This document shows, piece after piece, positions 5,994 through 62,495 of a stretch of DNA of 64,000 nt. This DNA is from Escherichia coli (GTDB taxonomy: Bacteria; Pseudomonadota; Gammaproteobacteria; Enterobacterales; Enterobacteriaceae). The notes below the pieces were generated by a model, which did not search any database, was not told the origin of the DNA, and saw only the letters and a list, made by a program, of their open reading frames with translations. Made by a program: the position numbers and the translations under genes. The stretch is taken from assembly GCF_030013595.1 (NCBI RefSeq), contig NZ_CP122768.1, one strand, 5' to 3'. How positions within the stretch are numbered: position 1 is the stretch's first letter; each line of letters opens with the position of its first letter.

Positions 5994-6199
5994 ATATGCA
6001 ATAATTAATTGCACTGCCCCGCCAGCTATAATCGCGGGGCTTCGTTTTTCAGGGATAACAAAACCCGAAACTTCTTCCATCTGCCAGCAACAATGCCTCT
6101 TCCTCTATAGTGTTCTCCGGATCTACAGCATCCTGAAGTAGCGCGATGTACTCATTGGCTATCTGCATCAGAAAGTTAAAAACAATGTTTTTAACCTAT

Positions 6200-6228
6200 A
6201 AAAATGGCGCTTTATTTGCGCCATTTTT
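6200..6228. terminator. Bidirectional rho-independent terminator between convergent ykgJ and yagU
   Basis: Perfect inverted repeat aaaaatggcgc / gcgccattttt with 6 nt loop, flanked by A/T runs on both strands. Confidence 0.55.
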
Positions 6229-6241
6229 ATCATTCAATGCA

Positions 6242-13509: not shown

Positions 13510-14646
13510 TTATTTCAGTTTGGTCTGGAAAAATTGTTCGAACTTCGCGAAAGGTATTTTTCCGGCCACGTTATCGTACAGGTCCACGTGATTTGCCCCT
13601 GGTACCACCACCAACTCTTTGTCGTTACTGCCAACCGCCTTGTAAGCATCTTCAGCAAAATAACGTGAATGCGCTTTCTCACCGGTCACAATCAGCGTCG
13701 GAATGGTGATTTCACTGGCGTAGCTCAACAGCGGCATATTCATAAATGACAGCGGCATCGTTGCCGTCCACGCCCCGGTAGAGTTAACGGAACGTTCGTG
13801 GAAGCCGCGCGGCATGCGATAGTAGTCAAAGAACTCTTTCAGTACCGGATGAGGATTTGCCGGCAGCGTTTCTGGCAGAATGCGCTCGCCCGCACTGACC
13901 TTGCCGTTGCTGTCGACATTAATATCATGACCACCGTGAGCGAACGTTCCGCTCTTCGCATCCTTCCAGCGCTGTTCATTCAGATATTGCAGAACAGCAC
14001 GACGGTCGGCGGTAGAATAACGGTCTTTGCCATCCCCCACACCATGACCCATCGCCCGGCTCATGTCATACATCACGCTGGTAGCTACCGCTTTAACGCG
14101 GGTATCCATCGCTACGTCGTTCAGCGCCATGCCGCCCCAGCCACAAATACCGAGCAGCCCGATACGGTTGCGATCTACCTCTTTTTGCAGCCCTAAGAAA
14201 TCCACCGCCGCGCTGAAATCTTCAGTGTTGATATCCGGTGAGGCGACGTTTCGCGGATAGCCGCCGCTTTCCCCGGTGTAAGAAGGATCGAACGCCAAGG
14301 TAACAAACCCTCGTTCCGCCAGCGTCTGCGCATACAGGCCGCTGGATTGCTCTTTCACCGCGCCAAATGGCCCACTGACCGCAATCGCCGCCAGCTTGCG
14401 ATCGCCACGGTCTTTAGGCAGGTAAAGATCGCCCACTAAGGTGATGCCATATCGGTTCGGGAACGAGACTTTACGGTGATCGACTTTCTGGCTCTCGGCG
14501 AACGTTTTATCCCATTTATCTGTCATGGACACAGGGGCATTAGGATTGGTTGAATCAGCATAACTCATTGTCGTGACTCCACTTAATGATGCGAAAAGCA
14601 GCATGGTCGGCATCGCGGTTTTTAGCGTGCGGGTGAAGGCTTTCAT
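13510..14646 (-). CDS. Secreted alpha/beta hydrolase (dienelactone hydrolase / S15 peptidase-like)
   Basis: About 378 aa with N-terminal signal peptide, GICGWGG nucleophile-elbow-like motif; start codon uncertain (ORF track starts at 14667). Confidence 0.7.
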   Translation of the reverse strand: MKAFTRTLKTAMPTMLLFASLSGVTTMSYADSTNPNAPVSMTDKWDKTFAESQKVDHRKVSFPNRYGITLVGDLYLPKDRGDRKLAAIAVSGPFGAVKEQSSGLYAQTLAERGFVTLAFDPSYTGESGGYPRNVASPDINTEDFSAAVDFLGLQKEVDRNRIGLLGICGWGGMALNDVAMDTRVKAVATSVMYDMSRAMGHGVGDGKDRYSTADRRAVLQYLNEQRWKDAKSGTFAHGGHDINVDSNGKVSAGERILPETLPANPHPVLKEFFDYYRMPRGFHERSVNSTGAWTATMPLSFMNMPLLSYASEITIPTLIVTGEKAHSRYFAEDAYKAVGSNDKELVVVPGANHVDLYDNVAGKIPFAKFEQFFQTKLK

Positions 14647-14832
14647 AAAAATCCCCATAAAAAACAACAGAGAGATACAGGTTTCCGACGGACAACGCTG
14701 CGGTGCTTTGCTTTGATGGGGTCATTATAGTGAGCAGAATTAGTGCTGATTAGGGGGCGATTAATGCTAAGATTAATACCATATTGTTATAAATTAATGT
14801 GGAGATTGCCGGCATGAAGGGGGGATGTTTCA

Positions 14833-15717
14833 ATGGCGAAAAGGGAGAACTACAACGAGCTGTACCTGTTTATGCAGGTGGTGCGAGAAGGCAGCTTTAC
14901 CGCAGCGGCTCAGCGGCTGGGTCTTGCTCAGTCAGGAGTCAGCCGTTCTGTTCGCGAGCTTGAAGAAAGGCTGGGCGTCCAGCTGCTAGTGCGCACCACG
15001 CGTAAACTGTCGCTGACACAAGCAGGCGAGCAGCTCTACCAGAAGACGGCATCTGGATTTGAAATGTTAGATCTTGGGCTTGCCACGCTGGCGCACTATC
15101 GAGAGACGCCCTCCGGCACGGTGCGTATCAATGCCAGCCAGCACGCGATTGATAAATGCCTGCTGCCAAAGCTGGCGGTATTTAAACAGAGATATCCTGA
15201 TATCCGGCTTGAACTGATAAATGAGAGCCGGTTCGTCGATATCATCGAGGAAAGATTCGATGCAGGTGTCCGCCTGGGGCCTGAAGTCGGCCAGGGTATG
15301 GTCGCGGTACGCATCACGCCCGATATGGAGATGGCAATTGTGGGGACTCCGGAACATTTTCGTCGCTATGGTTTTCCGCAAACCCCGGCGGATTTAAAGG
15401 CGCATCCCTGTATCGCCTATCAGTTTGCCGACGGCAGCGTATACCAGTGGGAACTCAATCAGGATGATAAAAAAATCACTCATCGCCCTGAAGGGCAATG
15501 GGCCCTATCCGACAGCTATATGGAAGCAGAAGCCGCCCGGCTGGGCCTCGGATTGGCCTATGTTCCTGTTGAACTGGTCGCGGATGATTTAGAACACGGT
15601 AAGCTTATCAGGGTGTTGCAGCGTTACAGCCTGCGAATGGAGGGATTGTTTCTCTATTACCCTCATCGCAACGTCTCCCCCGCCCTGCGGATGGTCATTG
15701 ATACATTGAAAATCTGA
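14833..15717 (+). CDS. LysR-family transcriptional regulator
   Basis: 294 aa; N-terminal HTH (FTAAAQRLGLAQSGVSRSVRELEERLGVQLL) and LysR substrate-binding region. Confidence 0.85.
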   Translation: MAKRENYNELYLFMQVVREGSFTAAAQRLGLAQSGVSRSVRELEERLGVQLLVRTTRKLSLTQAGEQLYQKTASGFEMLDLGLATLAHYRETPSGTVRINASQHAIDKCLLPKLAVFKQRYPDIRLELINESRFVDIIEERFDAGVRLGPEVGQGMVAVRITPDMEMAIVGTPEHFRRYGFPQTPADLKAHPCIAYQFADGSVYQWELNQDDKKITHRPEGQWALSDSYMEAEAARLGLGLAYVPVELVADDLEHGKLIRVLQRYSLRMEGLFLYYPHRNVSPALRMVIDTLKI

Positions 15718-16301
15718 ACGTTAACAACGACCGACTCTTCACTGTGCAAAATTGTGTCAGGTAGTCCCTCTGCGTTCAATTCCAGGGTCTGTACAGTCTG
15801 CTTTGAGCGAGAAAGAGGGGACTATCCAGCAATGGAGATCACCCAAAAGAAAAAACCACCTGGCTCCCTCGACAACCTTCATCCAGGCATTTAGCCTCAA
15901 TCAACATTTTTATATCTGTCAGGTTACTTCATGATGAAAACTGATCATTATCGTTGTTTTTGTTGCAATAGTAGAATACGCGTATTTATTCCTCCATCTC
16001 TATTAATAACGGCAATAAACTGTTCACTTCACTGATATTTAAAATATGTATCCTTTTCAAGCTGTTCAGCGGCGTAAGAAAAAGTATTAATTATGAATTC
16101 GATGATTTAACCATATCTGTCTGATTGGTAATCATCCGTGATTAATGCTGGTCTATTGATTACGCCAGCATTAACCGCTTAGGGATGTATTCTTCCTGTT
16201 CATATAGCCCTCGAAAAAGAGAGAAAATAAAACTGTGTCCAATATTAATTTACCACTCCAGACCGAAGCATCGGTGGGATTAGCAGAATGATCTGCGTCT
16301 G

Positions 16302-22730: not shown

Positions 22731-22799
22731 TATTTGCTCCTTATGAATGAGTTAGCGGTATAAATGAATAAATATCCTCCGGCATAGCCGGAGGTTTTT

Positions 22800-23520
22800 C
22801 AAATGCGCCTGTAAGGCTCTGTTACCAGCCGCGCCCTAACAGGCGCATACGATCTGACATTTGCATTCAACTTCGTTACTTACGGCCCGTAAACGGGCTG
22901 CCCGGATATGGAATCGATAACTGCTCCCCCATTTTATCCTCTTCAAGCTGGTGCTTTATGTAGTCCTGTATCTTCGCCGTGTTCTTACCCACCGTATCGA
23001 CATAGTACCCTCGGCACCAGAACTCCCTGTTTCTGTATTTGAATTTCAAATCCCCAAACTGCTCGTAAAGCATCAGACTGCTTTTCCCTTTCAGATATCC
23101 CATAAAGCCGGATACGCTCATTTTGGGTGGGATTTCCACAAGCATATGGATATGATCTGCGCAGCACTCTGCTTCCAGAATCCGTACGCTTTTCCACTCA
23201 CACAGCTTTCTCAAAATACTGCCTATCGCCCTACGCTTCTCTCCGTAAAACGCCAGTCTTCGGTATTTCGGCGCAAAAACTATGTGATATTTACAGTTCC
23301 AGCGGGTGTGCGCTAAGCTCTTTTCGTCCCCCATTGGGACCCCCTTTTGATTTCTTGTTTGACACTTGCAGTTGCCAGACCGCAAGGTGTTTTAACAAAT
23401 CAAAAGGGGTTTTAATAACTGGCTCAAAGCTGAAAGCTTTCCGGAACCCCCAGCCTAGCTGGGGGTTTTCTGTGCACAAAAAGCCGCGTCTCCCGGAGAA
23501 GACGCGGCCTGATGGGTGAA
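22800..23520 (-). mobile_element. IS200-like insertion sequence (boundaries approximate)
   Basis: Contains IS200/IS605 Y1 transposase gene; upstream on the minus strand a perfect hairpin gccgcgtcttctccgggagacgcggc followed by a T-run and a second hairpin cccccagctaggctggggg, the characteristic IS200 left-end structures. Confidence 0.75.
22876..23334 (-). CDS. tnpA: IS200/IS605-family Y1 (HUH) transposase TnpA
   Basis: 152 aa from MGDEKSLAHTRWNCKYHIVFAPKYRR with HUH motif ADHIHMLVEIP and catalytic Tyr region; ORF track start 23385 is an extension. Confidence 0.85.
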   Translation of the reverse strand: MGDEKSLAHTRWNCKYHIVFAPKYRRLAFYGEKRRAIGSILRKLCEWKSVRILEAECCADHIHMLVEIPPKMSVSGFMGYLKGKSSLMLYEQFGDLKFKYRNREFWCRGYYVDTVGKNTAKIQDYIKHQLEEDKMGEQLSIPYPGSPFTGRK

Positions 23521-23530
23521 ATGAAGACGT

Positions 23531-23800
23531 TTATTGCCTGAGAATTCCCTCACTGGCGAGATACGGATTTAGCTGTTTTCCGGCATCAGGTTCAAAATTC
23601 CAGTACCGCCAGCGCAACTGACCTTCAGCATTACGGATAACCAGCCGGAAATGCGTTCCCTGGTCATCTTCAATAAGCACATTGCGGTAAGCTGTTGTGA
23701 CGGCAACCGCCTGTTCGCGTGAGAAAGGGCCTTCGGGTAATAAACGTGATGTACAACCCGGCATATCTGTTGCTCCCTGAAAGTAAAAGGCCCCGGTCAT
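23531..23800 (-). CDS. Small hypothetical protein downstream of antigen 43
   Basis: 89 aa ORF, no recognised domain; coding potential judged only by length and context. Confidence 0.4.
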
Positions 23801-23834
23801 GATGACCGGGGCCTGAAGGGGAGTGACCTGATTA

Positions 23835-26681: not shown

Positions 26682-26894
26682 CAGCTTTTCCTTACAGAGG
26701 GTGAATAAAAAAGCCGGTACCCACAAATATGGGTACCGGCAGGTACAAAACAGCATGGTCAGATAAAGTGGTTTTTCCCGGACATAAATGCTTCTCCTCT
26801 CTCATCCGCCAGAGAAGTATCAGTCCGTTGTGTGCAATTCCGTTCTGCATGATGAAGAGATTCAGCTGCCTTTTCGCAGACCATTAACCACTAT

Positions 26895-26938
26895 AAACGA
26901 TCGATGGTAACGATCGATACATGTTTTATCGATCGTTT
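26895..26938 (-). promoter_or_regulatory. agn43 leader with three clustered GATC sites (Dam/OxyR phase-variation switch)
   Basis: GATC at 26899, 26912 and 26931 within about 35 bp, roughly 220-250 bp upstream of the Ag43 start codon. Confidence 0.65.
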
Positions 26939-44975: not shown

Positions 44976-45031
44976 TTGATTTAAATGGTGCCGATAATAG
45001 GAGTCGAACCTACGACCTTCGCATTACGAAT
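44976..45031 (-). repeat. Island-junction direct repeat overlapping the 3' part of thrW
   Basis: 56 bp match to 16635-16690 with 2 mismatches. Confidence 0.85.
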
Positions 45032-45061
45032 GCGCTGCTCTACCAACTGAGCTATATCGGC
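44986..45061 (-). tRNA. thrW: tRNA-Thr (anticodon CGT)
   Basis: Reverse complement reads GCCGATATAGCTCAGTTGGTAGAGCAGCGCATTCGTAATGCGAAGGTCGTAGGTTCGACTCCTATTATCGGCACCA; 76 nt with CCA end, located next to proA. Confidence 0.95.

Positions 45062-62379: not shown

Positions 62380-62495
<116 letters not shown>

Follow-up and report, generated by a model that had tools for sequence, protein, structure and literature searches.

The 64,000-nucleotide stretch of Escherichia coli DNA analyzed here (the window) carries an intact copy of IS200C, a tnpA-only member of the IS200 group within the IS200/IS605 family, which lies on the minus strand at 22767..23477, was probably gained by recent transposition, and was inserted without target duplication directly 3′ of the T5 tract in the terminator of a DUF905 gene. 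We assign this reading a probability of about 0.95. Nothing contradicts the identification as IS200, and the copy is a standard IS200C element at a standard IS200 target, which makes it a known and ordinary case.

Identity and exact limits of the IS200C element

22767..23477, minus strand: complete IS200C element, 711 bp, delimited by an empty-site comparison and an invariant right end
22876..23334, minus strand: tnpA, intact, encoding a 152-amino acid Y1 (HUH) transposase; element nucleotides 144–602

The first-pass annotation had assigned the gene to a Y1 transposase of IS200, and this assignment is borne out by matches of TnpA to Pfam Y1_Tnp (E = 7.9e-37, 126.5 bits against a cutoff of 23) and to the NCBIfam equivalog transpos_IS200 (144.4 bits against a cutoff of 55), as well as by ends that are shared with IS200C copies. 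TnpA is homologous to the solved IS200/IS605 transposase structures 2ec2, 2a6m, and 2xm3. Its HUH motif reads HIH at residues 61 to 63, and Tyr125 is present within KIQDYIKHQ; the corresponding Y125F variant is the catalytically dead mutant used as a control by Ellis et al. 2015 (PMC4513863). Both the catalytic residues and the whole element are intact in the window copy, which is identical at 710 of 711 positions to a copy located between ygeA and araE in another E. coli strain (L003), and the TnpA proteins of these two copies are identical. The ATG at 23334 was taken as the start of tnpA because it follows the Shine–Dalgarno sequence AAGGGGGT and agrees with RefSeq proteins. A TTG-initiated ORF of 169 codons (22876..23385) was considered for this role and rejected, as its start falls inside the 5′ UTR stem-loop. 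Within the 711 bp of the element tnpA is the sole gene, and there is no tnpB. Terminal inverted repeats are likewise absent, the ends GTGCACAG... and ...ATATTTATT being unrelated to each other, and subterminal hairpins are present at both the left (23445–23467) and the right (22776–22794) end. RefSeq labels such copies as IS200/IS605-family transposases, and copies that are approximately 95 to 96% identical are named IS200C.

To locate the ends, we relied on related islands in which the element is missing. A 20-kb query recovered E. coli islands that are 99.2 to 99.9% identical and lack the element. One of these, the 99.8%-identical island of E. coli VTB97022v (L004), presents an empty site whose flanks are otherwise the same and which is exactly 711 bp shorter, with a DUF932–DUF905 spacer that reads ...GGTATAAATGAAAAAGCCGCGTCTCCCGGAGAAGACGCGGCC.... 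The comparison was made by exact prefix and suffix matching to L004; a three-way MAFFT alignment misplaced the short empty-site sequence. By exact matching, the left flank is common to the window and L004 up to 22768, and the right flank is common from 23478. Between the anchors lie 800 nucleotides in the window and 89 nucleotides in the empty site, from which it follows that the insertion is exactly 711 bp in length and that no target sequence was duplicated. Each junction is bordered by a T/A run, which leaves the register of the ends uncertain by 0 to 2 nucleotides. Among the matches listed, the right end ...CCGGAGGATATTTATT, with its terminus ...GGAGGATATTTATT, does not vary over more than 40 other copies whose 3′ flanks are unrelated. 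RefSeq IS200C copies align across 22767..23482, and the termini are identical in eight E. coli copies. The empty-site match and the invariant right end therefore define the element as 22767..23477, running on the minus strand from GTGCACAGAAAA... to ...ATATTTATT.

The first-pass annotation had staked its identification on an IS200-family match for the ends and had proposed a comparison with islands that lack the insertion. The ends do agree with those of other IS200C copies, and empty islands were found, with L004 revealing a clean 711-bp insertion. The box that it had drawn at 22800–23520 has to be redrawn. At the right end this box is 33 nucleotides short, so that part of the element is omitted and the right-end hairpin at 22776–22794 is lost, and at the left end it is 43 nucleotides too long, running into host DNA and taking in the host terminator.

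The host terminator and the RNA structures of the element

23483..23508, minus strand: intrinsic-terminator hairpin of the host DUF905 gene, not part of IS200; the same in the empty site of L004
23478..23482, minus strand: host T5 tract, the insertion target, abutted by the IS left end; found in the empty site as GCGGCTTTTTCATTTAT
23445..23467, minus strand: left-end hairpin of IS200, AACCCCCAGC-TAG-GCTGGGGGTT, the published Rho-independent terminator, assigned by fold, coordinate mapping, and literature
23340..23409, minus strand: Shine–Dalgarno-sequestering stem-loop; the published nucleotides 69–138 correspond exactly to CCCCTTTTGATTT...AAATCAAAAGGGGG
23344..23467, minus strand: match to Rfam RF01405 STnc490 (IS200 left-end Hfq-binding RNA), 146.4 bits against a gathering score of 56, full length (1–124)
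22803..22848, minus strand: long, imperfectly paired hairpin located after the tnpA stop codon and before the right-end hairpin, −26.3 kcal/mol (z −4.0)
22776..22794, minus strand: right-end subterminal hairpin CCTCCGGCTATGCCGGAGG, with ATATTTATT after it on the minus strand and TTTTT after it on the plus strand

Two hairpins had been described on the 5′ side of the Y1 gene, and both are present (23445–23467 and 23483–23508) and fold better than shuffled sequence. A perfect stem with a T-run had further been read as an IS200 feature that blocks read-in transcription. This attribution fails, since the T-run hairpin is unchanged in the empty site and is the terminator of the host DUF905 gene. 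It consists of GCCGCGTCT...AGACGCGGC followed by T5 and folds at −24.5 kcal/mol (z −6.2), and none of 200 shuffled sequences folds as well. In the empty site of L004 our scan calls this hairpin as a terminator with 13 pairs, located 21 nucleotides after the DUF905 stop codon. The insertion exchanges the distal portion of the U-tract, UUUUUCAUUUAU becoming UUUUUGUGCACA, and because of this replacement the host terminator is no longer called by the scan in the filled site. We also considered the host hairpin as a REP-type repeat and rejected this classification, given its single occurrence in the window.

Both hairpins might instead have belonged to IS200, in an element of approximately 22800..23520 whose T-run hairpin serves as the read-in terminator. 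Both structures do lie 5′ of tnpA, about 15 nucleotides apart, and IS200 is known to have a left-end terminator. However, this arrangement is already refuted by the empty-site comparison, in which L004 keeps the 23483–23508 hairpin together with its T5 tract. Moreover, the match to other IS200C copies ends at the T-run, where those copies carry hairpins of unrelated sequence, and the published terminator at nucleotides 12–34 maps to 23445–23467. For annotation, IS200C should thus be recorded at 22767..23477 and the host terminator at 23483–23508.

When nucleotide 1 is set at 23477, the published nucleotides 12–34 and 69–138 land on two inverted repeats of the element, within 1 nucleotide. The left-end hairpin has a perfect 10-bp stem and folds at −18.7 kcal/mol (z −2.5) on the minus strand and −20.7 kcal/mol (z −3.4) on the plus strand, with just two T residues after the stem in the tnpA direction. 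It was not called by the simple terminator scan on either strand, its T-run being short. Its terminator activity is taken from the literature, with the structure identified by coordinate mapping: the left-end terminator of IS200 has been described as nucleotides 12–34 of the element, bidirectional and Rho-independent (PMC4513863), and as stopping about 85% of impinging upstream transcripts (PMC5435999). The Shine–Dalgarno-sequestering stem-loop folds at −33.4 kcal/mol (z −5.4). The right-end hairpin is terminator-like on both strands in the scan and folds at −15.9 kcal/mol (z −4.7).

Note that the match to the Rfam STnc490 model is on the tnpA-sense strand and takes in the left-end terminator hairpin. 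According to Ellis et al. 2015, art200 (formerly STnc490) is encoded opposite the tnpA 5′ UTR (PMC4513863), and the art200 strand should not be read off from the Rfam family. Judged from its sequence, the element carries the full published repression apparatus, namely the left-end terminator, the stem-loop that hides the Shine–Dalgarno sequence, and the art200/STnc490 region.

Placement of IS200-group elements after hairpins and T-tracts

The position of the window copy conforms to a pattern that extends across the IS200 group. An exact-pattern scan for the left-end hairpin, with one genome per species, returned at least 120 loci (L005–L124), from Yersinia pestis (IS1541), Vibrio, Brenneria, Edwardsiella, and Dickeya, and from Mailhella, Bacillota, and Oxalobacter MAGs. 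In nearly all of the matches listed, the left end comes after a GC-rich hairpin and a T-tract, and among these matches the pattern is seen in every lineage of the element. In the 119 distinct flanks among the matches listed, T occupies position −1 in 119 of 119 and position −2 in 118 of 119, and is found at −4, −5, and −6 in 104, 116, and 90 flanks; position −3 is free, and the sequence further upstream is G/C-rich. Folding energies reveal the hairpin most clearly: 97% of the 124 distinct 40-nucleotide left flanks among the matches listed fold at −10 kcal/mol or below (median −18.2), as compared with 12% of 1,500 other T5 sites in the same loci (median −5.0; Mann–Whitney p = 7e-70). A strict count of perfect stems (63% versus 5%) undercounts imperfect stems, and the folding-energy measure was used instead.

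The same holds within E. coli, where 8 of 8 IS200C copies, at eight loci and all 711 bp long, follow a hairpin and T5 to T7. These copies are located at the ends of DUF905, agn43, araE, dsbA, emrB, uhpT, and carB, and in a plasmid gene. Although the copy on the plasmid (L127) disrupts a KilA-N/KilAC gene, it too comes after a hairpin and T5, and it therefore favors targeting rather than just the survival of harmless insertions. The copy at agn43 (L002, E. coli A_5) is an independent insertion of IS200C at the adjacent agn43 terminator, where GGCCCCGGTCATCATGACCGGGGC-TTTTT is joined directly to GTGCACAG; the homologous sequence in the window is 23784–23814. The DUF905 gene of the L002 island is annotated as frameshifted.

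Several other loci from the scan depart from the layout of a single complete element. Two loci in Yersinia pestis NCTC5923 (L081 and L083) contain head-to-tail IS1541 dimers, in which ...GGAGGATATTTATT is followed directly by GTGCCCAG...; because the left end abuts a right end (a hairpin and TATTTATT), the right end itself appears to behave as a target. In Dickeya undicola (L078, approximately 697–717), the left-end hairpin is flanked symmetrically, TCTATAGAAAA-hairpin-TTTTCTATAGA, an arrangement that suggests a small derivative or a palindromic remnant of the left end on its own, and not a complete element. At L016, L039–L041, L075, L108, and L121, the left-end hairpin occurs without a right end at the expected distance.

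These sequence patterns indicate that the IS is located where it is because IS200 inserts at terminator T-tracts, which would mean that its position follows a rule and is not accidental. In IS608 the choice of target is directed by the element, and by analogy the A4 run at nucleotides 9–12, just 5′ of the foot of the left-end hairpin, may pair with a single-stranded T-tract. Terminators are also similar to the right end of IS200 itself, a hairpin followed by TATTTATT, and this mimicry could be the basis of site choice; the right end would be laid out alike, with A5 before the hairpin and a T-rich cleavage site. We tentatively propose, at somewhat less than an even chance, that IS200-group transposases recognize intrinsic terminators as such, the folded hairpin and 3′ T-tract in single-stranded DNA mimicking the right end, so that the context would be mechanistic and not a survivor effect. 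The near-universal terminator context could nevertheless owe something to selection against other insertions. If terminator recognition is correct, the insertion in the window, found in this one genome, would show that IS200C, often called immobile, still moves in natural E. coli.

The terminator-context pattern is not new. Odaert and colleagues are said to have proposed terminator-like stem-loops as IS1541 hot spots in 1998 (J Bacteriol). Terminator-like sequences just upstream of IS200/IS605 elements have been reported, where they were taken as limiting transposase expression (bioRxiv 10.1101/2025.07.22.666184), and an IS1541 insertion in Yersinia between the pheL attenuator and pheA (PMC3082878) has the same pattern. 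A search of the literature for an explicit statement of IS200 target specificity returned none, these two reports being the indirect ones. A practical consequence of the rule is that it helps to set IS200 boundaries, in that a hairpin immediately beyond the left end belongs to the host.

Comparison with characterized relatives places the element within this group. Like IS200 of Salmonella enterica and IS200C of E. coli, it has a single tnpA with HUH and Y125, a length in the range of about 707 to 711 bp, no inverted repeats, no duplication, the terminator at nucleotides 12–34, the repeat at nucleotides 69–138, and art200/STnc490. There is no structural difference from these elements, and only the location is new, namely the DUF905 terminator of a thrW-linked Ag43 island. 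IS1541 of Yersinia pestis (710 bp) is approximately 87% identical (620 to 621 matches in a 714-column alignment) and shares the left-end hairpin, the right end ...GGAGGATATTTATT, and the placement after a hairpin and T-tract, but it differs in species, in copy number, and in its leader, which is GTGCCCAG rather than the GTGCACAG found here. IS608 (Helicobacter pylori) and ISDra2, which serve as mechanistic models of the family, have a homologous Y1 TnpA (2a6m, E = 3e-19; 2xm3, E = 5e-16) and subterminal hairpins, and they also insert 3′ of a short target that is kept at the left flank, without duplication. In contrast to IS200, which lacks tnpB and has a T-tract after a host hairpin as its flank signature, these two elements carry tnpB and recognize TTAC and TTGAT.

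Neighboring genes, distribution, and the surrounding island

23531..23800, minus strand: DUF905 gene, upstream neighbor; Pfam DUF905 E = 8.7e-31, and annotation in L001 and L004
21912..22730, minus strand: DUF932 gene, downstream neighbor; Pfam DUF932 E = 6.7e-48

The insertion had been placed between the DUF932 gene and the antigen 43 block. The DUF932 side of this description stands, and on the Ag43 side the DUF905 gene intervenes; its RefSeq ortholog is 77 amino acids long, which would start at 23764. Ag43 and DUF905 are upstream on the same strand, and DUF932, antirestriction, RadC-like, DUF987, YeeU-like, and CbtA-like genes follow downstream, with the IS oriented in the same way as DUF905 and Ag43. 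The DUF932 ATG is located 36 nucleotides past the IS right end, and its Shine–Dalgarno sequence AAGGAG is intact.

The proposal that the IS forms a boundary here reverses cause and effect. The terminator already divided DUF905/Ag43 from DUF932 in the empty island of L004, and because it is present there, the boundary was not made by the IS, which was instead attracted to it. The insertion does add its left-end terminator 10 nucleotides beyond the host one, as well as two hairpins at its right end, of which one resembles a terminator on either strand. Simple sigma-70 promoter scans of the filled and empty sites found no promoter-like site for DUF932, and a hybrid promoter at the right-end junction, which we had considered, received no support from these scans. 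Plausibly, fewer transcripts from DUF905 would continue into DUF932 and the antirestriction/toxin–antitoxin genes because of the added hairpins; if DUF932 and the genes that follow rely on such read-through, then the IS should be polar on them.

An insertion at this site occurs in 0 of 5,426 other complete E. coli genomes. A 1.5-kb query that spans the site is covered to at least 80% in one of the 5,426, strain A_5; we examined this match as a candidate for the same insertion and rejected it, because its IS200C is actually between DUF905 and agn43, at the agn43 terminator. Islands ranging from 84% to 99.8% identity are all without the insertion. On the basis of these genome counts, the empty related islands, and the 710/711 identity to a copy elsewhere, the insertion is probably a recent gain. 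In the recent literature IS200 is called apparently immobile (bioRxiv 10.1101/2024.06.26.600842), and relative to that description it is mildly notable that a singleton insertion with near-identical empty islands constitutes direct evidence of recent IS200 movement. The seamless junctions of this singleton and its isogenic empty sites are indirect signs that the element may transpose by single-strand peel-and-paste.

The alternative to a recent gain is that the IS is ancestral in the island and that the many empty islands arose by precise excision. The peel-and-paste excision of IS200/IS605 elements restores the donor site exactly (PMC5027513), and with such seamless excision an empty site alone does not separate a locus that was never occupied from one that has been vacated. 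However, the insertion is shared by none of the other complete genomes, islands over the full range of identity are empty, the copy is nearly identical to one elsewhere, and parsimony strongly favors one recent gain over many independent losses. We therefore regard ancestral presence as extremely improbable and retain recent transposition as the preferred explanation. Only slightly better are the prospects of a second proposal, that the copy is kept for its RNAs (the 5′ tnpA-derived sRNA and art200), which would act as host regulators as in Salmonella. The STnc490 region is intact, and regulatory sRNAs have been shown to derive from the Salmonella IS200 5′ UTR (PMC5435999; bioRxiv 10.1101/2024.06.26.600842), but the rest of the element is intact too, catalytic residues included, this insertion is a singleton, and the material examined here contains no known E. 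coli targets. Retention for this purpose is consequently very unlikely.

A functional role as an insulator, by which the IS would substantially uncouple the DUF932/antirestriction/RadC/CbtA–CbeA block from the Ag43–DUF905 block, is better founded than either of these proposals and still unlikely. In its favor, a left-end terminator with a reported efficiency of about 85% on upstream transcripts (PMC5435999) is now set between DUF905 and DUF932, the two right-end hairpins are added to it, and DUF932 may depend on read-through, given that only 36 nucleotides without a promoter-like site precede its ATG. Nevertheless, a strong intrinsic terminator stood at this spot before the insertion, the position of the IS is explained by target preference rather than by selection for insulation, and a singleton among 5,426 genomes bears no sign of selection. 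Target preference at a pre-existing terminator thus remains the reading that we favor for the location of the element.

Other features of the window describe the island in which the element resides. A tRNA-Thr(CGU) gene that is thrW-like is located at 44986–45061 (minus strand), and in L004 an integrase is found beside a LysR-family pseudogene and paoD, at roughly 16.1 to 18.2 kb in window coordinates; the Ag43/toxin–antitoxin island therefore seems to occupy a CP4-6-type slot, from pao to thrW. The first approximately 2.3 kb of the 20-kb query (window 14000–16287) has no counterpart in the 99.8%-identical islands, in which matches begin at query position 2288 or later, and therefore the island is unlike its closest relatives in its left boundary region. 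A match to the Rfam IS102 RNA (an IsrC-type sRNA; 72.6 bits, 26700–26936, minus strand) immediately precedes the start of Ag43, an arrangement shared with the K-12 flu region. Also above their Rfam gathering scores are IS009 (191.5 bits, 6036–6236, minus strand) and the ES036/CssrF sRNA (43.1 bits, 62409–62451, minus strand).
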